From assembly GCA_040768165.1 (NCBI GenBank), contig JAXGNH010000010.1, positions 120,590-184,589 of the forward strand: a stretch of 64,000 bases of DNA, read 5' to 3'. Made by a program: the position numbers and the translations under genes. Below are positions 3,598-52,557 of this stretch, piece after piece. Positions within the stretch are counted from its first letter, which is position 1. Each line of letters begins with the position of its first letter. The DNA is from Anaerolineae bacterium. GTDB lineage: Bacteria > Chloroflexota > Anaerolineae > UBA1429. The notes below the pieces were generated by a model. The model searched no databases and was not told the DNA's origin. It saw only the letters and a list, made by a program, of their open reading frames with translations.

Positions 3598-6096
3598 GTG
3601 AGCGAGGACGATCGGCAGGTTATCGTCCACATGGTCGGCAACGCCCACATCGATCCAATCTGGCTGTGGACGGTGGAGGAGGGGCGCGAGGAGGTGCTGG
3701 CGTCGTACCGCACCGCCGTCAGCCTCCTGCGCGAGTTCGATGGATACGTGTTTACCAGCGGCGCCACCGTCACCTATCGCTGGGTGGCCGAGGACGACCC
3801 CGCGCTGTTCGAGGAGATTCGCGCTGCGGTGGCCGCCGGGCGCTGGAATCTGGTGACGGGCTGGTGGGTGCAGCCGGACTGCAACCTCCCCTCGGGCGAG
3901 TCGTTCGCCCGGCACGCCCTCTATGGCCAGCGCTACCTCGAGGCGGTGTTCGGCCGTCGCGCGCGGGTGGGATACGCCGTGGACTCGTTCGGGCACGCCG
4001 GCACGCTGCCGCAACTCCTCGCGCTGGGCGGGCTGGACAGCTATGTCTTTTTCCGGCCCGGACCCAAGGAAAAGGACCTGCCCGTCGGCCCCTTCTGGTG
4101 GGAGGGGCCCGATGGCAGCCGCGTGCTCGCCTGTCGCCCGCCCCTCCACTATGGTACGCCGGGCGACGTGGACATTGCGGCGCGCATCGAGGCCGCGGCC
4201 GTGGAGGGCGCCACGGATCGCCTCCCCCTCACCATGTGCTTCTATGGCGTGGGCAATCACGGCGGGGGGCCCACCCGCGCCAGCGTGGCCGAGATTGCCG
4301 CGCTCTCGGCTGCCGACGGGGCCGTGCGGCCGATCTTTTCCTCGCCGGAGCGCTACCTAGACGCCGTGCGTGCCCTGCCCGATGCCTGGCCGGTGGTGCG
4401 TGACGATCTGCAGCACCATGCTCGCGGCTGTTACTCGGTGCTCTCGCGGGTAAAGCGGGAGAACCGCCGCGCCGAGGATGCCCTGGTGCGCGCTGAGCGC
4501 CTGGCTGCGCTGGGCGCCGCGGTGGCGGGATCGAACCCCGGCACCGAGCGCCTGCGGAGCGCCTGGGAGGGGGTGCTGTTCAGCCAGTTCCATGACGTGC
4601 TGGCGGGTACCTCCATTCGCGATGCCTACGAGGGCGTGTGGCGCCTGTACGACGCCGCTCAGGAGACCGCCGCGGAGGTCCTCGACGGCGCCCTGGAGGC
4701 GCTGGGCGCTAGGCTGGGCGTCCGCGACCAGGGGCGCCCGCTGATGGTATGGAACCTGCTTCCCTGGGAGCGCAGCGACGTGGTGCGCTTTGCCCTGCGC
4801 ATGGCGGACTGGCGGCATGACCCCTGGGGTAAGCGGTTCCCCGGACAGCCCATCGTGACGGACGCCGAGGGGCGACGCGTGCCGGCCCGCCTGACCGAGG
4901 TGGTGATGGATTACAACACCTACGTGGTGCACGCCGAGGCGCAGATCACGCTGTCGGCGCTCGGCGCGGCGGTCTTTTACGTGGAGGTGCCCGAGATGGC
5001 GCCCCCTACGGAGGAGCCGCCCCGGCCGCAGACCGATACCATCGGCAACGACATGCTGCGCCTGCGCGTGGACGCGGATACGGGGGCCCTGGCCAGCCTG
5101 GTGGACATCGCCTCGGGTCGCGAGTACCTGGCGGGGCCGGCGAGCCTGCCGCTGGTGATCGACGACCCCAGCGACACCTGGAGCCACAACGTGGACGCCT
5201 ACCCGGACGTCATCGGCGCGTTCCGCGCCACGGGGCCGGTGGAACTGGTGGCGGACGATGGCGTGCGTCGCACCCTCCGCGTAGAGAGCGCCTGGGGCCG
5301 CTCGCGTATCACACAGGAGTACACCCTCTACCCCCGCAAGCGCGTCGTGGATGTGACCCTCACCATCGACTGGCACGAGCAGCTCAAAATGCTCAAGCTA
5401 GCTTTCCCGCTGGCGCTCTCGGGGACGCGCGTCACTGCCTCGGCGCCCTATGGATGGGTCGAGCGCCAGGCCGATGGACAGGAGGAACCCTGTCAGTCGT
5501 GGGTGGACGTGAGCGGCGAGGGCCCGGAGGGGGCGCTGGGCGTCTGCTTTATCAATGATAGCAAGTACGGCTATGACGTGCTGGACAACACCTTTCGCCT
5601 GAGCGTACTGCGCAGCCCCATCTATGCCTTTCACGTCCCGCGCATGATGGTGCCCGGCGTCACCTACCCCTACATCGACCAGGGACGGCAGGTGGTGCGG
5701 CTGCGGCTGCTGCCGCACGACGGCGAGTGGCGGGCGGTGCATCCGGTGCGCCAGAGCGAGGCGCTGCACCATCCGTTCATCCCGCGGTGGGTCGCGCCGC
5801 GCTCCGGCACGCGGCACAGCCTGTCCCTGCTGCGCGTCTCGCCGGAGGACGTGGTGCTCACCGTGGCCAAAATGGCCGAGGACGGCGAGCGCCTCATCGT
5901 GCGCGGTTACGAGACGGCGGGGCGGCCGGCGAGGGTCGTGATCGCATCCGCGGCCCTGGGACATACCTGGACCCACGCCGTACGGCCCCACGAGGTGTGG
6001 ACGCTGGCCCTGCCCCTGGACGGCGGGGCGCCCGTCCCACTGAATCTGCTGGAGGAGCCGCTGGCGGACGCGCGGCCCGCCGACGCGCAACCCTGA
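3598..6096 (+). CDS. GH38 alpha-mannosidase
   Basis: ORF 3556..6096. GTG 3598 is preceded by GGGGAGGG. N-terminal signature HMVGNAHIDPIWLWTVEEGREEV and DSFGHAGTLPQLL are typical of GH38. Confidence 0.85.
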   Translation: MSEDDRQVIVHMVGNAHIDPIWLWTVEEGREEVLASYRTAVSLLREFDGYVFTSGATVTYRWVAEDDPALFEEIRAAVAAGRWNLVTGWWVQPDCNLPSGESFARHALYGQRYLEAVFGRRARVGYAVDSFGHAGTLPQLLALGGLDSYVFFRPGPKEKDLPVGPFWWEGPDGSRVLACRPPLHYGTPGDVDIAARIEAAAVEGATDRLPLTMCFYGVGNHGGGPTRASVAEIAALSAADGAVRPIFSSPERYLDAVRALPDAWPVVRDDLQHHARGCYSVLSRVKRENRRAEDALVRAERLAALGAAVAGSNPGTERLRSAWEGVLFSQFHDVLAGTSIRDAYEGVWRLYDAAQETAAEVLDGALEALGARLGVRDQGRPLMVWNLLPWERSDVVRFALRMADWRHDPWGKRFPGQPIVTDAEGRRVPARLTEVVMDYNTYVVHAEAQITLSALGAAVFYVEVPEMAPPTEEPPRPQTDTIGNDMLRLRVDADTGALASLVDIASGREYLAGPASLPLVIDDPSDTWSHNVDAYPDVIGAFRATGPVELVADDGVRRTLRVESAWGRSRITQEYTLYPRKRVVDVTLTIDWHEQLKMLKLAFPLALSGTRVTASAPYGWVERQADGQEEPCQSWVDVSGEGPEGALGVCFINDSKYGYDVLDNTFRLSVLRSPIYAFHVPRMMVPGVTYPYIDQGRQVVRLRLLPHDGEWRAVHPVRQSEALHHPFIPRWVAPRSGTRHSLSLLRVSPEDVVLTVAKMAEDGERLIVRGYETAGRPARVVIASAALGHTWTHAVRPHEVWTLALPLDGGAPVPLNLLEEPLADARPADAQP

Positions 6097-34454: not shown

Positions 34455-34775
34455 GCTGTAGGGTCCGCACGCTGTGCGGAAGGCGACGCGCTGTGCGTGG
34501 CCTGCCTGTCTCCTTGGGCGCCGCGAGCCAAAGCTCGGTAGCGCGCGATGCTGTAGGGTCCGCACGCTGTGCGGAAGGCGACGCGCTGTGCGTGGCTTGC
34601 CTGTCTCCTTGGGCGCCGCGAGCTAAGGCTCGGTAGCGCGATGCTGTAGGGTCCGCACGCTGTGCGGAAGGCGACGCGCTGTGCGTGGCCTGCCTGTCTC
34701 CTTGGGCGCCGCGAGCTAAAGCTCGGTAGCGCGATGCTGTAGGGGCCGCACGCTGTGCGGACCGCCGCTCGATGG
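34455..34775. repeat. Tandem array (about 3.4 x 93-95 bp) of GTAGGG-headed REP-like units
   Basis: Unit starts gctgtagggtccgcacgctgtgcgga at 34455, 34550, 34643 and 34736. Confidence 0.9.
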
Positions 34776-43377: not shown

Positions 43378-44736
43378 ATGTCCATCACCGCCCGAGACGT
43401 GCACGAGCATCTGCGCTCCCTGGGGCCCTGGGTCGCGTGGGACCGGGGCACCTGCGATGGGTTCAAACACGGCGACCCGGAGACCGCCGTCACCGGCATC
43501 GCCGTCACCTGGCAGTCGCTGCAGAACACGCTGGAGGAGGCTCACGCCAGGGGGCACAACCTCGTCATCACCCACGAGCCCACCTTTTACAGCCACATGG
43601 ACGACGACGCCGCCATGCGCGCCACGCCGCCCGGCCGGCGCAAGGCCGAGTTCCTCGATCGGACGGGGATGGTGGTGTACCGCTGTCACGATCTGTGGGA
43701 CATCTACCCGGAGAAGGGGATCGTGGACGCCTGGAGCGCCTTCTTGGATCTCGGCGCACCCATCGCGCGGGAGCGCTACTATAACCTCCATGCCGTGCCC
43801 GAAACGGCCGCCTGGGAGCTGGTGGGGCGCATCGCCCGCCAGGTGGCGCCCCTGGGGCAGCAGGCGGTGCAGTTCGTCGGCACCCCGTGGCAGATGGTCC
43901 ATCGCCTGGCGGTGGGCACGGGCGCCATCACCAACGTCCGCCGCATGGTGGAGCTGGGCGCCGACGTGGTGCTGGCCACCGACGACGGCGCCACTCTGTG
44001 GCGCGACGGCGCCTGGATGGCCGACCTCGGCGTGCCGATGATGGTGGTAAACCACACCACGGCCGAGATACCGGGTATGCGCAACCTCGCCGCGCATCTG
44101 GCGGAGCGGTTCCCGGCGGTGCCGGTCGAGTTCCTCGGGCCCACATGTGGCTACGAGATCTTGGCCACCGAGCGCGTGCGCGATACCGCCATCCGCATGC
44201 GACGCGACGACCTGGAGGGGCTGCCGCCGGTGGTGGTGCCCGAGGGGTACGTCTGCCGGCCCATGGCGCCCGACGAGGCCTGGGCCTACCTGGAGGTGAT
44301 GAACGCCTCGAACTATTCCGGCGAGGCGGATCAGGCCTGGTTCGACCGCACCTTTGCCGGCGATCCTGAATACGATCCCGCCCATCTGAAGCTCATCTGG
44401 CGGGGCGATCGCCCCGTAGCGGCGGCGGGCGCCTGGCACATCACCATCGACGACGAGCGTTGGGGCATGATCCATTGGGTGGGTGTGTCGAGGGACGAGC
44501 GCGGCGGGGGGTTGGGCAAGGCGGTGACGCTGGCCGCCCTGCACCGGCTGCGCGAGCGGGGGTTCACCCGCGCCATGCTCGACACGAACGCCTGGCGGCT
44601 GGCGGCGGTGGCGGCCTACATGCGACTCGGTTTCCGCCCCTGGCCCACCGAGCGCGGGCCGCAAGAGGTGTGGGACCGCGTCCTGACCGATATGGCGGCT
44701 TGGCGGCGCTGGGGCGCCCCCCGGCCAAGGGACTGA
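43378..44736 (+). CDS. NIF3-family (dinuclear metal centre) domain fused to C-terminal GNAT acetyltransferase
   Basis: The N-terminal 270 aa carry NLVITHEPTFY and HTTAEIPGM. The C-terminal domain has the GNAT motif RGGGLGKAV. Confidence 0.65.
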   Translation: MSITARDVHEHLRSLGPWVAWDRGTCDGFKHGDPETAVTGIAVTWQSLQNTLEEAHARGHNLVITHEPTFYSHMDDDAAMRATPPGRRKAEFLDRTGMVVYRCHDLWDIYPEKGIVDAWSAFLDLGAPIARERYYNLHAVPETAAWELVGRIARQVAPLGQQAVQFVGTPWQMVHRLAVGTGAITNVRRMVELGADVVLATDDGATLWRDGAWMADLGVPMMVVNHTTAEIPGMRNLAAHLAERFPAVPVEFLGPTCGYEILATERVRDTAIRMRRDDLEGLPPVVVPEGYVCRPMAPDEAWAYLEVMNASNYSGEADQAWFDRTFAGDPEYDPAHLKLIWRGDRPVAAAGAWHITIDDERWGMIHWVGVSRDERGGGLGKAVTLAALHRLRERGFTRAMLDTNAWRLAAVAAYMRLGFRPWPTERGPQEVWDRVLTDMAAWRRWGAPRPRD

Positions 44737-44756
44737 TGCGAATTGGAGGTCCTCCG

Positions 44757-47700
44757 GTGACGGAATCCCGCTCAAACCTGCGCGTGCTGGTGGCCGCCCC
44801 GCGTCCCGCGGGGCGCGAGCCGATGCCAACGCGCAGCCACGTGGAAGCAATGTATGATGCCCTGGAGGCCCAGGGGGACCGGGTGGAGGCTTACTGGCTC
44901 TACCCCGGGACGCCCGAGGCACTGGCCGCCCGACTCTCGGGGGACGACGGCCCTGCGCCCGACGTCGTCGTGCTCGATGTCGCCATGGAGATGGGCGCCG
45001 AGCCCCTGGCGTACCTGGAATCGGACGTGCCGGAGGGCGGGGCGCTGGCAGCTGGGGAGTTGGGCGCCATCCTGCGCCAGGGGAGCGCCGGCCTGGTGGT
45101 GCTGCGCCCGGCCATGTCGGCCGGCGCCGATCCGGCCAACGCTGACGCGGCAGCCGGCGGGCCGGCGCGCTATGCCGATGCCCTCGCCCGTCAGGCAGAA
45201 CTGGCCGTGCTGCGCGTCGACGAACGCCTGGACGAGGAGGCCCTGCGCGTCGCCATGACGGCGGCGCTGGCGGCGCTGCTGGCGGGGCATGCACCGGGCG
45301 AGGCCCTGGAGGAGGCGCGCCGTGCCCTCGCGGAGGGGGCGCCCCACGTGGACCCCGCCGAGGGACTGACCCTGCACGGCTCAGGGGGCGCGCCGGTGGT
45401 CGCGCCTCAGACGGGTGGGCGTGGCGTCGGCAAGGTAGTGCGCTTTCCGGGGGCAGAGCTGCAGCCCCCCTGGCGGCGCTTGGCCCAGGAGCCGGCCGAG
45501 GGGGGGCTGCCCCTCGAGCCGGAGCATGGCTGGGTGGGGCGCGCCGTCGAGCTGGCAGCGCTGGAGCGCGCCGCCCACGACGAGGCGGGCAACGGTATCA
45601 CGCTGATCCATGGCTACCATGGCGCCGGCAAGACCGCCCTCGCTGCCCACGCCGCGCGCTGGCTGGTGCGCACGGGGCGCTTTCGGCAGGTGGTGTACGT
45701 ACGATACGCCGAGGGGGGCTATGCCGAGCGCGCCCTGTACGCCGTGGGGGCGCGGCTGGTGGGCGACCGCTTTGACCTGCGCGCCCCCGACGCCGTCGGC
45801 GACGTGGAGCGGGCCCTAACCGAGACGCCGACCCTTGTCATCTGGGACGACGTCGATGCGCTCCTGCCCGAGGGTACCGCGCCCATCGCCGCCGGCGACC
45901 TCGAGGAGTTGCTCAAGCTGGGGGTTCGCCTGGCGGGGACCGGCACCTCGCGCTTGTGGGTGCTTTCAGAGACGGCGACGCTGCCGCATCCGGCGTACCG
46001 CGCCGGCGCCGTCACGCTGGCGCTGCCCGTCGCCGGGCTGGCCCCCGCCGACGCCGAGGATCTGGTGCGCAGGGTGTGGCCCGCCGGAGCGCTCGATGGC
46101 GTGGACGATGATGCCCTGCGGCGCATCATCTGGCGGCTGGGCGGCCAGCCACTGGCGCTGCGCGGCCTGGCGGCGCTCTTGGAGCATCGTGCGTTGGGGG
46201 AGGTCGCCGCCGAGCTGTCGGCGAGCCTGCCCGGGTTCGACCTCGGCGAGGCGCGGCTGCGCGACGAGGCGCTGCAGCTCGTCTTGCAGGCGCTGATGCG
46301 GTCGGTGGAGGAGGACCTCCGCCCCAAGCTGGAGGCGCTGGGGGTCTTTGCCGGGGGGCTGATGCGGCCATTGGGCGGCAACGTGGCAGAGTTGGAGGAC
46401 GCCGCGTGGGACCGGCTCGTGCGCCTGCTGAACGCCGCCGGACTCGTGCGCCAGCTCGAGGTGCCCGGCTTTAACGTGTCCTTTCTGCGCTTCCATCCCG
46501 CCCTGGCGCAGCACCTGGCGCGGCGTCTGCCGCCGCCCGTGCGCGTCGGGGCGCTGCATCGCCACGCCGGCGCCTACCTCGGCCTGCTCAAGTGGATGAT
46601 GCAGAACGCAGCGCAGCATGGCGCGGTGGTGCGCGCGCTGGCGCTCCGCGAGTTGGCCAACTTTCGTCGGGGCCTGGCCACGCTGTGTGACGCCCACGAA
46701 CTCAACGTAGCATCCGAGTACGCCAACCTGTGGCAGCGTTTCCTCGGGGACCTGGGTTTCCGCTCGGAGCATCAGGATTCCGCCCGGCGGCTGCGCGAGG
46801 CGGTGGCGCAGATGGTCCCGTCGGAGGGGCCGGTGCAGCGCGCGGGCGCGCGCTTTCTCATCGCCCAGGGGGAGCAACTCCTGGCCGCCGGGCGCGCCCC
46901 TGAGGCGGCCGTCATGCTGCAGCACCTGGTGGAGCGCATGGAGGCCGAGGGGGGCATGGCCTACAGCGGGCCGGAGGCGGTCCTCGACCTTGCCCAGGCC
47001 CGACGGCGTCTGGGGCGCGCCCTCGTCGTCGTGGGGCGGGGGGACGCCGCCGTGGCGGCCCTGACGGCGGCGCTGGGGTCGCTGAGCGAGGCGCGCGGCG
47101 ATGAGGCGCGCCAGGAGGCGATGCTGGCACGGCAAGACTTGGGCGACGCCTACCTGGCGGGGGGGCGCCCCACGGAGGCCGCCGAGGCGTATCGCCAGGG
47201 GCTGGAGATGGCGCGCGAACGCGATGATCGCCGCCTCATGGGCACGCTCAACGCGCAGCTCGGCACCATCGCGATGGCCCAGGACGACAAGGGCACCGCC
47301 CGGCAGCACCTGGAGGCGGCCCTCTTTGATCTCCAGACGACTAACGACGCCGCGGCGATGTCGGCCATCTGGAGTCAGCTCGGCACGCTGGCCTGGCGCG
47401 GCGCCGACCTCGAGGAGGCGGAGCGCTGCTACCAGCAGGCGCTGGAACTCGCCCGCCAGGCGGGGCAGCCGTTGGTGGAGGCCCAGGTGCACCTCCAACT
47501 GGCGCTCACGGCGCGCCAGGCCGACCGCCTGGCCGATGCCGAGGGGCACTATACCCAGGCGATCCGCATCTACCAGGAGAACAGCGTCCGCACGGGCCTC
47601 GTATCGGCCGAGGTGGCGCTCGCCGAACTGTTGTTGGGCGAGGGAGAGTTGGAAAAGGCGCGCGTCCACGCCGAAGCGGCCCGCGCCGTGGCCGAGGATC

Positions 47701-48389
47701 CGCGCGTGACGTTCGACGCCTGGGCGGTGTATGCGCTGTTGCAGCGCATCGCCGAGGCGCAGGGGGACGCCGAGCGCGGGGCGCATTGGCGCGCCAAGAC
47801 GCAAGAGGCTTTTGCGCATTCCCCCGAGGCGCAGCAGGTGCAGCAGCAGTGGCAGAGCGTCATCACCGGTGTAGCGAATGCCGCGCGCGGCGAGACCCTG
47901 GACGCGAATACGGTGGAGCTGCTGGAGCAGCTCGAGGGGCGCCAGGAGTGGCGCGACCTGGTGGGCGTCATCTGGCGCATCCTGGGCGGCGAGCGGGGGG
48001 CCGAGCTGTACGCCGAGCTGGACCACGTCGACGCCCTGGTGGTGCGGCGGACGCTGGAGGCGATCGAACGACCTCCGGAGGAGGCGGCGTCCGGAGATCA
48101 GGAGGAGGTGCCGGATATTGAGCGCTGGCCGGTGCCGCTCCCGCAACTCATGAGCGCCGTGGTGGCCGGCCTGCGGGGCGACCCCAACGCGCGGCGCCTG
48201 GTGGCGGGGGCGCTGGCGCGCATGGTGCAGGAGGATGCGCCCGAGTCGGCGCGGCGCTTTGCCGAGGCGCTGACGCGCATCCTGCGGGGCGAGCGCGACG
48301 AGTCGATGCTGGAGGGGCTGCCGAAGGAGGTGGCCGAGCCGCTGGCGGCGTTGCTGCGTGCGCTGGGCCAGACCAAGGCCGGCAACTGA
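44757..48389 (+). CDS. STAND NTPase: degenerate CHAT-like N-domain + NB-ARC ATPase + TPR array + duplicated C-terminal module
   Basis: GTG 44757 after GGAGG, with an alternative ATG at 44736 overlapping the upstream stop. Walker A GYHGAGKT, Walker B LVIWDDVD, RLWVLSET, and the GLPL-like LGGQPLAL. There are at least 8 TPR-like repeats (47000-47750). Confidence 0.8.
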   Translation: MTESRSNLRVLVAAPRPAGREPMPTRSHVEAMYDALEAQGDRVEAYWLYPGTPEALAARLSGDDGPAPDVVVLDVAMEMGAEPLAYLESDVPEGGALAAGELGAILRQGSAGLVVLRPAMSAGADPANADAAAGGPARYADALARQAELAVLRVDERLDEEALRVAMTAALAALLAGHAPGEALEEARRALAEGAPHVDPAEGLTLHGSGGAPVVAPQTGGRGVGKVVRFPGAELQPPWRRLAQEPAEGGLPLEPEHGWVGRAVELAALERAAHDEAGNGITLIHGYHGAGKTALAAHAARWLVRTGRFRQVVYVRYAEGGYAERALYAVGARLVGDRFDLRAPDAVGDVERALTETPTLVIWDDVDALLPEGTAPIAAGDLEELLKLGVRLAGTGTSRLWVLSETATLPHPAYRAGAVTLALPVAGLAPADAEDLVRRVWPAGALDGVDDDALRRIIWRLGGQPLALRGLAALLEHRALGEVAAELSASLPGFDLGEARLRDEALQLVLQALMRSVEEDLRPKLEALGVFAGGLMRPLGGNVAELEDAAWDRLVRLLNAAGLVRQLEVPGFNVSFLRFHPALAQHLARRLPPPVRVGALHRHAGAYLGLLKWMMQNAAQHGAVVRALALRELANFRRGLATLCDAHELNVASEYANLWQRFLGDLGFRSEHQDSARRLREAVAQMVPSEGPVQRAGARFLIAQGEQLLAAGRAPEAAVMLQHLVERMEAEGGMAYSGPEAVLDLAQARRRLGRALVVVGRGDAAVAALTAALGSLSEARGDEARQEAMLARQDLGDAYLAGGRPTEAAEAYRQGLEMARERDDRRLMGTLNAQLGTIAMAQDDKGTARQHLEAALFDLQTTNDAAAMSAIWSQLGTLAWRGADLEEAERCYQQALELARQAGQPLVEAQVHLQLALTARQADRLADAEGHYTQAIRIYQENSVRTGLVSAEVALAELLLGEGELEKARVHAEAARAVAEDPRVTFDAWAVYALLQRIAEAQGDAERGAHWRAKTQEAFAHSPEAQQVQQQWQSVITGVANAARGETLDANTVELLEQLEGRQEWRDLVGVIWRILGGERGAELYAELDHVDALVVRRTLEAIERPPEEAASGDQEEVPDIERWPVPLPQLMSAVVAGLRGDPNARRLVAGALARMVQEDAPESARRFAEALTRILRGERDESMLEGLPKEVAEPLAALLRALGQTKAGN

Positions 48390-48408
48390 GGAGTGACGGG
48401 CCCCGGCA

Positions 48409-48735
48409 TGTAGGGGCCGGACGCCGTCCGGCCCGCGCTGCGCGTATGGCCCACCCACGCTCGTCACGCGGCGCGCACCGGCGTGCGCGCCCTACACGGC
48501 GCTCGGTCGACATGCGTGCGGGGCATCGGCGTTTCCCGCTCCGCCGATGTAGGGGCCGGACGCTGTCCGGCCCGCGCTGCGCGCATGGCCCACCCACGCT
48601 CGTCACGCGGCGCGCACCGGCGTGCGCGCCCTACACGGTGCTCGGTCGACATGCGTGCGGGGCACCGGCGTTTCCCGCTCCGCCGATGGAGGGGCCGGAC
48701 GCCGTCCGGCCCGCGGCGCGGGGATCGGGGCGTTC
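48409..48735. repeat. Tandem array (about 2.3 x 139-140 bp), each unit carrying two GTAGGG-headed hairpins in opposite orientation
   Basis: Unit starts gtaggggccggacgc(c/t)gtccggcc at 48409 and 48549, and a ggagggg variant at 48688. Each unit has an internal ggcgcgcaccggcgtgcgcgccctac. Confidence 0.9.
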
Positions 48736-48991
48736 AGGAAGGGTTTGCGCGGACAGAGGGGCACTGTTCGTCCTGCGCCAGGCTGGTGGCCAGCAGGCGA
48801 CGAATCTCGGGGTAGCGGCGCACCACGAGGCGGATGAACCGCACGCCGGGGCGCCGCTTGCCGGCAAAGACCATGGAGAGCTGCCCGGTGGAGCAGCCCA
48901 CTTGGCGCGCCAAGCCGCGGTGGCTGAGGCAATCGCGCTCCGCGATGGCGTGCAGGGCGTCGATCATCGCCCGAATCTCAGTGTCTCGCAT
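48734..48991 (-). CDS. Small XRE/Cro-like HTH transcriptional regulator
   Basis: LSHRGLARQVGCSTGQLSMVFAGKR, with RBS GGGAGGAGG. Confidence 0.65.
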   Translation of the reverse strand: MRDTEIRAMIDALHAIAERDCLSHRGLARQVGCSTGQLSMVFAGKRRPGVRFIRLVVRRYPEIRRLLATSLAQDEQCPSVRANPS

Positions 48992-49046: not shown

Positions 49047-49075
49047 ATTATAGCACAAATGTTCTATTCCGGCAA
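49047..49075 (-). promoter_or_regulatory. Promoter TTGCCG-17-(TGc)TATAAT for the HTH gene
   Basis: Minus strand reads ttgccg gaatagaacatttgtgc tataat, including an extended -10. Confidence 0.55.
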
Positions 49076-49096: not shown

Positions 49097-50191
49097 GTGA
49101 TGGGCAACGGCACGGAGCAACTGCATCCGCATAGGCCGCGTCGGCGCGTCGCCCACGTCCCGTGGGCGGCGATGGCCGTCATCGCCGGCCTGTTGCTGGC
49201 CGCCATGGCGGTGGCCAGCCTGGAGCTGCGCCCGGAGGGCGGTGCGCGCACCGCCCTGTGGGTCGTGGCGGCGCTGGGTGGAGGCCTGGCGCTGGGCGGC
49301 ACGGCGGCCCTGGCGTGGGGGCGGCTCCGCTCCCGCCGCGGCCTGCACCTCTCCGCTGGAGGGGGGCGTCGCTGGCTGTGGCCCGCCACGCTCGCCCTGT
49401 TGGCTCTCGCCATCCTATCCGCCGTGCTGCCCATCCCCTATCCCTCGCCGTGGTTGAGCCTCGTCCCACCGCTTCTCTTCCTGGCCGGTGCCGCGATCCT
49501 GATCGTGCGCATCCTGAGCGACGCCACCCCCTTGACGTACCATCGCGCCCTGCGCGCCTACCGTGAGGGGGACGCCCAGCGCGCGCTGGCGTTGGTGCGC
49601 CAGGCGGTCGTCGAGCGCCCCGACGGCGCCTCCCGCGGCGCGTACGGCGTGCACTATCTCGAGGCGATCCTCCTGCGCGAGAGCGGCGCACTCTCTGAGG
49701 CGCGCGAGGTCGCCGATCGCCTGGTGGCGTGGCGGCCGGACCTGTACTATGGCCATGCCGAGCAGGGGCTGACCCTGTTGGCCGCCGGCGATGCGGCCAC
49801 GGCGTGCGAGGCGCTGGAGCGGGCCGTGGAGCGCGCCCCGCGCCTGGCCGAGGCACACTACAACCTGGGCATGGCGCGGGCGGAGGCGGGTGACGCGGCC
49901 GGCGCCGTGGAGGCGCTGGAGTGTGCCCTGCGCCTGGGGCTGTCCGACGAGGTAACGCACCTCATCGCGCGGTATCAGCTCTATCGTGCCTATAGCGACG
50001 CCGGCCTGGCGCGGGAGGCGGCCGACATGGTGCGCTGGCTACGGCGACGCCGGGGCGCGGTGCGGCGCTGGCGCGAGGCGCTGGCCGCGGACCTCTCGGC
50101 GCCGCGTGCGCGCCGCCGGCGCGACGAGGCGATGATCGCCGAGATCGAGCGCGCTATCGCGGGAGAGAATCGTAACGCGGCGGCCAAGTAA
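49097..50191 (+). CDS. Membrane-anchored TPR-repeat protein
   Basis: About 4 N-terminal TM helices, then TPR-like repeats (AEAHYNLGMARAEAGDAAGAVEALECAL). The start is GTG 49097 or ATG 49100. Confidence 0.6.
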   Translation: MMGNGTEQLHPHRPRRRVAHVPWAAMAVIAGLLLAAMAVASLELRPEGGARTALWVVAALGGGLALGGTAALAWGRLRSRRGLHLSAGGGRRWLWPATLALLALAILSAVLPIPYPSPWLSLVPPLLFLAGAAILIVRILSDATPLTYHRALRAYREGDAQRALALVRQAVVERPDGASRGAYGVHYLEAILLRESGALSEAREVADRLVAWRPDLYYGHAEQGLTLLAAGDAATACEALERAVERAPRLAEAHYNLGMARAEAGDAAGAVEALECALRLGLSDEVTHLIARYQLYRAYSDAGLAREAADMVRWLRRRRGAVRRWREALAADLSAPRARRRRDEAMIAEIERAIAGENRNAAAK

Positions 50192-51691: not shown

Positions 51692-51759
51692 GCAGGCCGT
51701 CTCCACGATTGGACTGCCAGTTACCGTTGCAGTGCCAGTGTCCGGCGATAGAGGAGCGC

Positions 51760-52557
51760 ATGGCGAAGCGATATAGGGCGTTGAGTTGTGAGGTGTTGGC
51801 CCGTCATCTGTACCACGTGGCGGCGCGGGCGCCGGACGTGATCGATGTGGACCTGATCGACAAGGGGCTGCACAGCGAGCCCGACGTGCTGCGCGCCGAA
51901 CTGCAGCGACGCCTCGACGCCATCCCACGTGAAAAGTACGACGCCGTGCTGTTGGGCTACGGGCTGTGCAGCAACGCGGTGGCGGGGCTCGTCTGCCCCG
52001 TGGCGCCCATGGTCGTGCCCCGCGCTCACGACTGCATCACCCTCTACCTGGGCTCGGCCGACCGCTACGCGGCCGAGTTTCGCGCCAATCCGGGCACCTA
52101 CTGGTACACGGCGGACTATATCGAGCGGGGGGGTTCCAACGGCGATCGCATCGCGCTGGGCGCCTCCGTGGACGATAAAGAGATGGACGCCGTCTACCAC
52201 GAGTACGTCGCCAAGTACGGTCAGGACAACGCCGACTATCTCATGGAGGTGATGGGCGCCTGGCGGCAGCACTATAACCGGGCGGCGTACATCGACACCG
52301 AGGGGATCGTCCTGCCCGACTATACCGGGGAGGTGCAGGATCTGGCGGTGCGGCGCGGCTGGGCCTTCCAGCGCATGGCCGGCAGCCTGATCCTGGTGCG
52401 CGACCTCCTCGAGGGGCGCTGGGACGAGGAGCGCTATCTCATCGTGCCGCCGGGGCAGACCATCTCGCCCACCTACGATGCCTGTATCGCCAGGGCGGTG
52501 GACGCCAACGGAGCGTCCGATGACGCGGCCACCGGCCGCGCCGCCACGCGTGGATGA
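51760..52557 (+). CDS. DUF1638-domain protein
   Basis: ATG 51760 after [28 protein letters not shown] pattern, recalled from DUF1638. Confidence 0.55.

Follow-up and report, generated by a model that had tools for sequence, protein, structure and literature searches.

Csx29 of type III-E CRISPR systems, a protein that joins tetratricopeptide repeats (TPRs) to a CHAT domain, is reportedly an active protease. SAVED-CHAT is activated via its SAVED domain and Csx29 via the Cas7-11–crRNA complex, and DdvA, in which CHAT is likewise combined with TPRs, retains the catalytic dyad (H862/C907) (PMC11506125). Caspase folds without activity have also been described: in MoxR-vWA systems, ~70% of the caspase domains carried by the vWA component lack activity, and a dominant-negative or peptide-binding role has been proposed for them (PMC7159879); in addition, pseudo-orthocaspases of the C14 family are known (Klemencic et al. 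2019, PMC6426788). Systems with inactive caspase folds occur preferentially in filamentous or multicellular phyla, Chloroflexi among them (PMC7159879, PMC6426788). The subject of this report is a gene of an Anaerolineae bacterium (Chloroflexota), found in a 64,000-nucleotide stretch of DNA referred to throughout as the window (assembly GCA_040768165.1, contig JAXGNH010000010.1, positions 120,590 to 184,589). An intact open reading frame (ORF) runs from a GTG start at 44757 to a stop ending at 48389 and encodes a STAND protein of 1,210 aa. The gene is real, and its product consists, in order, of a caspase/CHAT-fold domain, an NB-ARC-type NTPase, a TPR array and two helical C-terminal modules, here called GER modules (Table 1). 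Because the protease is dead in every member of the clade, the N-terminal domain (N-domain) is expendable in some lineages and the gene behaves as a single-copy resident of the chromosome, we read the protein as a scaffold or sensor that is switched by nucleotide, does not cut proteins, and has its origin in STAND conflict proteins of the caspase type; we assign this reading a probability of roughly 0.5.

Comparison with the described systems places the protein between several of them. SAVED-CHAT, DdvA, and Csx29 keep the His–Cys dyad and have no nucleotide-binding oligomerization domain (NOD), whereas in the window protein the dyad is lost and a NOD is present. The systems of Kaur, Burroughs, Iyer and Aravind 2020 (PMC7159879) and the pseudo-orthocaspases (PMC6426788) resemble it in having a caspase fold without catalysis, and in the NTPase-regulated effector position. 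In the former, however, the caspase is fused to vWA within MoxR-vWA ternary systems, and the latter are stand-alone C14 p20 proteins (Tyr/Ser variants), whereas here CHAT is fused directly to an NB-ARC-type NOD, and no MoxR or vWA domain occurs among the window neighbors or the called genes of homologous loci. The CHAT-NOD-TPR STAND proteases (P0015, P0016, P0018, P0019, P0045, and P0122, with the TIR-CHAT-NOD-TPR proteins P0020–P0030; P and L numbers denote homologous proteins and loci) share the domain order and have a homologous N-domain, NOD, TPRs, and GER modules. They differ in that the dyad motifs, HFDGHG and ACQS, are intact, where the clade of the window protein has Ala/Ala or other residues, and in having ~90–160 additional N-terminal residues; they often carry two to seven modules or added TIR or kinase domains, against one or two modules in this clade. 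The clade of the window protein is confined to one syntenic position in Anaerolineae. An earlier note, made by reading the sequence by eye, had called the arrangement undescribed. That holds for a dyad-less CHAT domain fused to an NB-ARC-type NOD(-TPR) as a conserved orthologous clade, of which no report was found in the literature, and not for inactive caspase-fold effectors, which have been described (PMC7159879).

Pfam gave no match for residues 1–258 or 1020–1210 of the protein, and CHAT (PF12770, of the clan CD caspase-like peptidases) did not match the N-domain at E ≤ 1. The AlphaFold2 (AF2) model of the N-domain had a predicted local distance difference test (pLDDT) score of 86.6 and a predicted template modeling score of 0.80. 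Its best Foldseek match in the PDB was SAVED-CHAT (8tl0, E 1e-7), followed by the DdvA TPR-CHAT anti-sigma factor (8rw5/8rot), caspase-4/-11, MALT1, CED-3, and separase. The top 24 matches (E ≤ 1e-3) were all CHAT, caspase, or MALT1 structures, in agreement with a caspase-hemoglobinase alpha/beta fold, with flavodoxin-like folds ranking below them; the E values against the two best structural matches, SAVED-CHAT and DdvA, were 1e-7 to 7e-6, with a TM-score of only ~0.5. Profile comparison by hhalign of 14 dyad-less sequences with 7 active CHAT domains (Pfam-verified, from among P0015–P0027) gave 99.8% probability and E 5e-29 over 240 columns, and a tblastn search of the window with the CHAT domain of P0015 gave a match at E 2e-6. 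In distant full-length relatives, Pfam CHAT matches lie directly N-terminal to the NTPase with E values of 1e-22 to 1e-29; these relatives include P0015, P0016, P0018, and P0019 (29–33% identity) and the TIR- or kinase-prefixed P0020–P0030. One orthologue, P0009, itself passes the CHAT gathering score (25.9 vs 24), over profile positions 176–270 only. Word-indexed homologue searches with the N-domain alone returned nothing, and with the C terminus alone only three near-identical fragments, because the Ala/Leu/Arg-rich sequence saturates the candidate pool.

MAFFT aligns residues 1–205 on the CHAT domains of relatives, setting VLDVAM (within VLDVAME, residues 72–78) against HFDGHG and LRPAMS (within LRPAMSAG, residues 116–123) against LNACQS. 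Together with hhalign, it reproduces the by-eye alignment of the earlier note, in which the catalytic His corresponds to Ala76 and the Cys to Ala119. The dyad was scored in 63 aligned family members that possess an N-terminal region. The catalytic His is absent from every one of the 37 proteins of the dead clade (1,075–1,262 aa) and a Cys stands at the aligned column in 2 of them, whereas 24 longer relatives keep both residues. Given the two substitutions and this census, the domain, as judged from the alignments, is CHAT-derived and not a CHAT protease. The fold and the replaced dyad thus agree with what had been seen by eye; the extent does not, since the region once taken as 330 aa of CHAT comprises about 205 aa plus a linker of ~50 aa and is truncated at its N terminus. 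In active relatives, the first 65–160 residues lie ahead of the aligned core; members of the dead clade are without them, and the window protein aligns only from ~residue 160 of P0015, where the Pfam CHAT match starts at residue 94.

Neighbor-joining analysis of the NOD region separates the active CHAT-NOD-TPR proteins from a single clade of dyad-less proteins, within which proteins devoid of an N-domain branch at several places. Three complete orthologues (L021, 2185–5151; L022, 7628–10594; L025, 7499–10540) have no CHAT-like domain at all, with 50–97 codons from the upstream stop to the Walker A motif. Their genes lie directly after NIF3-GNAT or before DUF1638/transketolase, both of which also flank the gene in the window. 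Active CHAT-NOD-TPR relatives, dyad-less CHAT proteins, and CHAT-free orthologues at one chromosomal position thus form an evolutionary series, throughout which the NOD-TPR-module core is under purifying selection.

The C-terminal region contains the most conserved part of the protein. Module 1 is found in all orthologues at a mean column identity of ~0.70 (N-domain, 0.52), with the consensus W..I.GVA.A.RGE...W..L...IWRILGGERG..L...LDHVDALVVRR.LEAI; its WRILGGERG motif occupies residues 1073–1081. Module 2 follows an acidic linker, carries LTRILRGERD at residues 1172–1181, and occurs in no more than about half of the orthologues. Homology between the two modules is supported by BLASTP (E 0.005) and hhalign (92.6%, E 4.4e-7), so the duplication first noticed by eye is real, with units of about 80 aa in place of the ~60 aa then estimated. 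The AF2 model (pLDDT 88.6; module 1 above 90) shows each as five helices packed into a compact unit, with GGERG in a loop that connects helices. When 1.84 billion representative proteins were searched with the module profile, 613 matched at E ≤ 1e-3, of which 146 reached E ≤ 1e-10; the 613 representatives are clusters at 50% identity. The module occurs in 1–7 (possibly 11) tandem copies at the C terminus of intact-dyad CHAT-NOD-TPR proteins (P0045, P0091, P0122, and others), on NOD-TPR proteins without CHAT, on other STAND proteins, and in complete stand-alone proteins of 190–210 aa with two copies.

No model of Pfam, NCBIfam, PHROGs, or PADLOC matched the GER module, and no description of it was found in the literature. 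Foldseek returned no structural neighbor of the C-terminal model (best E 2.1 in the PDB and 0.7 in BFVD), and a sequence search of the PDB with the C-terminal profile gave chance-level matches only (E ≥ 0.07). Resemblances of the model to TPR, 14-3-3, and SNAP-like folds were dismissed as those of generic helical repeats. An EAD/Death-like identity (EAD1–11) was likewise rejected; EAD2 matched 1 of 14 members at E 0.01 and the others gave nothing. The GER module is therefore a genuine, widespread, and apparently undescribed domain, of which the window protein carries a reduced array. The stand-alone two-copy proteins are P0086, P0081, P0089, P0174, P0170, P0102, P0138, P0167, and P0168 (loci L027–L030); a role for them as operon partners of the STAND protein was considered and rejected, the genes for P0086 and P0167 sitting in unrelated ordinary contexts. 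Among active relatives, the P0045 gene (5398–11331 on a JGI contig, 3300047160) encodes a CHAT-NOD-TPR protein with seven modules and is preceded by an overlapping gene (4476–5414) for a 312-aa protein without a Pfam match, possibly an operon partner or substrate, which has no equivalent in the dead clade.

In the central region, Pfam recognized a P-loop NTPase followed by TPRs, which we read as an NB-ARC-type STAND NTPase with its TPR array, and the four NB-ARC motifs listed in the earlier note are all present in the order given there. Over residues 259–440, AAA_22 scored 31.4 bits (cutoff 27), NB-ARC 22.3 (cutoff 23.5), and AAA_16 25.8 (cutoff 32.6); the orthologue P0009 passed the NB-ARC cutoff with 25.5 bits. 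A sequence search of the PDB with the NOD region (residues 242–758) found no match. From position and motif resemblance, LGGQPLAL possibly corresponds to the GLPL motif and RFHPAL to the MHD-like histidine. The Walker motifs vary: the Walker A Lys is replaced by Arg (GSGRT) in 2 of 14 aligned members (P0003 and P0005), and the second acidic residue of Walker B differs across the clade (DD, DG, DH, or DN). Judging from this variation, some members of the clade may do without ATP hydrolysis, and NTPase catalysis appears relaxed too. The loci concerned include L032 (4521–8126) and L001 (10001–13570). The TPR matches (TPR_12 and TPR_MalT, PF17874) span residues ~750–1020.

Between the N-domain and the NTPase lies a linker with a motif specific to the clade, GVGKVVRFP..L.P.W.RLA.EP..GGLPxEP (GGLPPEP in the window protein; KVVRFP at 45432–45449). 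Its mean column identity is 0.65, against 0.52 for the N-domain, despite predicted disorder (pLDDT 50–70), and only the GGLPP.P end is shared with active relatives. The conserved motif could be a docking peptide. The NOD, TPRs, and module 1 together are the most constrained and invariant unit of the protein.

The surroundings of the gene bear on whether it serves defense. The window order is ABC-ABC-MarR-(glyoxalase-EamA)-NIF3-GNAT, the STAND gene, a repetitive extragenic palindromic (REP) array, a helix-turn-helix (HTH) gene on the minus strand, a TPR membrane protein, aminotransferase V, DUF1638, and transketolase; the NIF3-GNAT fusion, tandem palindromic repeat, and HTH gene are the flanks already recognized by eye. 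This order recurs wholly or partly in L001, L007, L012, L013, L019, L021, L022, L025, L031, and L032, and at 11 distinct loci the STAND gene lies beside NIF3-GNAT upstream or beside the TPR membrane protein, DUF1638, or transketolase downstream. In these syntenic loci, STAND identity is only 33–77%, and that of the flanking enzymes 57–74%. At five further loci (L004, L006, L008, L018, and L023), the downstream HTH gene alone is retained, among other ordinary neighbors; L002 has different ordinary neighbors and no HTH gene, and the sequence of L010 ends at the STAND gene. A genome scan (a pattern search of one genome per GTDB species) found 15 loci, all in Chloroflexota and mostly in metagenome-assembled genomes (MAGs) of Anaerolineae/Anaerolineales, with one locus per MAG. 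No defense island and no protease or effector neighbor was seen at ~25 homologous loci, and no other CHAT, STAND, or module gene occurs in the window or the fetched loci. PADLOC gave only a generic TPR model (3e-7) and mad8 (0.008) for the STAND protein, and PHROGs no match.

These observations bear first on the possibility that the protein is an Avs-like antiviral sensor whose oligomerized pseudo-CHAT domain would recruit and activate, or dominantly inhibit, a catalytically active CHAT or caspase paralogue with its gene at another place in the genome, by analogy with cFLIP and caspase-8. The family is of conflict type in origin, with TIR-CHAT-NOD-TPR and kinase-CHAT-NOD-TPR relatives; the caspase fold is kept with high model confidence and is under purifying selection; and dominant-negative or peptide-binding roles have been proposed for other inactive caspase domains (Kaur et al. 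2020, PMC7159879). Avs proteins and the window protein also share a three-part plan, in which the STAND NTPase lies between an N-terminal domain and a C-terminal TPR sensor. Unlike Avs proteins, however, the latter has no enzymatic effector, its sole candidate effector domain being without catalytic residues; it has no meaningful PADLOC match and no defense island, and it is inherited vertically in synteny as a single copy and not patchily. An adjoining protease or effector gene is missing at all of the ~25 loci, the window holds no second CHAT, and orthologues without the N-domain occupy the same position. An Avs-like role is thus unlikely. The earlier note had favored such an antiviral framing with a trans-acting protease as partner; neither part found support, since the neighborhoods are housekeeping contexts only, with one copy per MAG, and L021, L022, and L025 manage without the domain that a partner would engage.

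A second alternative stems from the downstream neighbors. The STAND protein might be the sensor half of a module formed with the adjacent XRE-type HTH protein and the TPR membrane protein, as a MalT-like, ATP-dependent regulator acting via the neighboring HTH. MalT/AfsR-type signaling STAND proteins do share with it a NOD, a MalT-like TPR sensor (the TPR region matches the TPR_MalT model), and a chromosomal, non-mobile context, although no DNA-binding output domain was detected in the window protein and its N terminus is a caspase fold. Of the ~20 loci for which downstream sequence is available, 13 have an HTH gene (80–105 aa) directly after the STAND gene; the TPR membrane protein follows the STAND gene in the window, L001, L007, L012, and L019. 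The HTH gene is, however, convergent with the STAND gene and not co-transcribed with it, and is absent from L002, L007, L015, L017, L020, and L025, and the adjacency is what conserved synteny alone predicts. We regard this proposal as distinctly improbable.

Loss of the dyad, with N-terminal truncation and repeated loss of the CHAT domain, would also be expected of a decaying conflict-system relic with no current function. The Walker A Lys-to-Arg change and variable Walker B of some members point in the same direction, as does an in-frame TAG in one orthologue. In that orthologue (L013, ~9110; MAG DAOTZU010000073), a single TAG stands where the window protein has Tyr in an otherwise conserved frame; the codon is due either to an error in sequencing or to recent decay of the gene into a pseudogene. 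Against decay, all 37 aligned clade members, most of them from distinct 50%-identity clusters, have intact ORFs of ~1,075–1,260 aa, and the C-terminal module is very highly conserved. Comparison with the two closest relatives gave an overall dN/dS of 0.23–0.25, with 0.29–0.39 for the N-domain, 0.14–0.17 for the TPRs, and 0.13–0.35 for the modules. The N-domain is the least constrained domain, yet its ratio, like that of every other domain, is below 0.4. With a dN/dS of ~0.23, the gene is therefore under selection, and a functionless relic is largely refuted by this analysis, which leaves it very improbable.

The scaffold or sensor reading can be put as a sequence of events. The ancestors would have been caspase-like (CHAT) protease STANDs of bacterial conflict or cell-death systems. 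A sub-lineage of Chloroflexota (Anaerolineae) would have come to carry the gene at one fixed place in the chromosome, in single copy and with vertical inheritance, and there the gene would have lost the His–Cys dyad and the N-terminal part of CHAT and had its module array cut to one or two copies. In the present protein, the TPR array and GER module(s) would bind a conserved, probably cellular, partner or ligand, and the NB-ARC domain would bind ATP and drive a conformational change or oligomerization. The output would be non-catalytic scaffolding or sequestration in place of proteolysis, with the pseudo-CHAT domain as an accessory protein- or peptide-binding or dimerization surface, dispensable in some lineages.

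Several points weigh against this account. Nucleotide switching, oligomerization, the bound partner, and the biological role are all inferred from architecture. Purifying selection on the N-domain means that it does something in its sub-clade, and this could be the recruitment of a protease encoded elsewhere. The ancestral TIR-CHAT-NOD and kinase-CHAT-NOD family is typical of conflict systems, and conserved hotspots can harbor defense genes. The neighbor-joining tree of the NOD has no support values; some of the database entries without an N-domain may be fragments, L021, L022, and L025 alone having been verified against their upstream genes; and the genome scan used a strict pattern, so that phyletic breadth and copy number may be larger than it indicates. 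A bolder extension, which we offer tentatively as a possibility, is that a caspase-type STAND immune or cell-death receptor was domesticated in filamentous Anaerolineae as a core non-proteolytic regulator, the business end of which is the ~75-aa helical WRILxGERD module, a new class of STAND sensor/adaptor repeat; the free two-copy proteins could then be its partners.

The series from active protease to CHAT-free core makes the family a tractable case for the role of a STAND receptor after the death of its effector, whether as scaffold, decoy, regulator, or partner of a protease in trans, and a test case for the recruitment of conflict-system receptors into housekeeping roles in multicellular bacteria. 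Public annotation of the relatives says merely "tetratricopeptide repeat protein", and definition of the GER module would improve the annotation of many large STAND proteins that now carry that label.

Table 1. Features of the STAND gene and its immediate flanks, in window coordinates
Feature	Position	Strand	Basis or remark
NIF3-GNAT fusion gene	43378..44736	+	Ends 20 nt upstream of the STAND gene; syntenic in the window, L001, L021, L022, L031, L032
Shine-Dalgarno-like GGAGG	44745..44749	+	8 nt upstream of the GTG start; read from the sequence
Coding sequence, 1,210-aa pseudo-CHAT/NOD/TPR/GER-module STAND protein	44757..48389	+	ORF and translation
Caspase/CHAT-fold domain without catalytic dyad, residues 1–205, N-terminally truncated relative to canonical CHAT	44757..45371	+	AF2, Foldseek, hhalign
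Ala76 codon, catalytic His position (HFDGHG in active relatives, VLDVAM here)	44982..44984	+	Alignments, hhalign
Ala119 codon, catalytic Cys position (LNACQS in active relatives, LRPAMS here)	45111..45113	+	Alignments, hhalign
Low-confidence linker with clade-specific motif, residues 206–258	45372..45530	+	Alignment, AF2 pLDDT 50–70
NB-ARC-type nucleotide-binding domain, residues 259–480	45531..46196	+	Pfam, motifs, conservation
Walker A GYHGAGKT, residues 286–293	45612–45635	+	
Walker B LVIWDDVD, residues 360–367	45834–45857	+	
RLWVLSET, residues 399–406	45951–45974	+	
GxP motif LGGQPLAL, residues 461–468	46137–46160	+	
Winged-helix/arm region, residues 481–740, with conserved RFHPAL (residues 578–583; 46488–46505)	46197..46976	+	Alignment consensus
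TPR array (MalT-like), residues 741–1005	46977..47771	+	Pfam TPR_12 3e-14, TPR_MalT 2.7e-13
Module 1 (GER module), residues 1028–1106	47838..48074	+	Alignment, AF2, profile search
Module 2, diverged second copy, residues 1126–1210	48132..48386	+	hhalign, hmmsearch domain matches
REP-like array, 2.3 tandem copies of a 139-bp unit, outside the gene	48408..48725	.	Fills the gap between the STAND and convergent HTH genes
XRE-type HTH gene, 85 aa, convergent with the STAND gene	48734..48991	-	tblastn synteny; HTH_3/HTH_31 on homologues

Full-length STAND homologues are 39–99% identical to the window protein and begin, in the alignment, at the residue equivalent to the GTG start. An upstream TTG at 44460 was rejected as the start, as it would overlap the NIF3-GNAT gene and the homologues begin at the position equivalent to GTG. 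The gene has a GC content of 73–75%, against 63–69% in its flanks. GC at third codon positions (GC3) is 0.87, equal to that of neighboring genes, and at first positions (GC1) 0.83; the excess arises because GC1 is raised by the Ala/Gly/Arg-rich protein, not from GC3. Recent horizontal acquisition of this GC-rich gene was accordingly rejected, given also that the gene is syntenic in distant relatives. NCBIfam and PADLOC added nothing specific for the STAND protein, and a scan for terminators and promoters was uninformative for its gene.

Some details of the neighborhood concern single loci. In L006 (3620–8364), the STAND orthologue is immediately preceded by an insertion that comprises a gene for a 1,466-aa RHS/YD-repeat toxin and a small RHS fragment, so that conflict genes can be accommodated at this position. 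The DUF1638 gene (51709–52557) lies just upstream of that for transketolase with a 4-nt overlap, and the pair is kept in L001, L021, L022, and L025, with identities of 57–70% for DUF1638 and 67–72% for transketolase. The HTH gene and that of the 364-aa TPR membrane protein (49097–50191, plus strand), which has hydrophobic N-terminal segments and C-terminal TPRs, form a divergent pair, and in L001, L012, and L019 this pair is likewise kept downstream of the STAND orthologue; at 49075–49047, upstream of the HTH gene, TTGCCG-17-TATAAT matches a sigma-70-like promoter. Each 139-bp unit of the REP-like array contains two GC-rich perfect palindromes, GGGCCGGACGCCGTCCGGCCC and GGCGCGCACCGGCGTGCGCGCC, and a looser copy of the GGGCCGGACGCCGTCCGGCCC motif is found elsewhere in the window, at 34739–34763.

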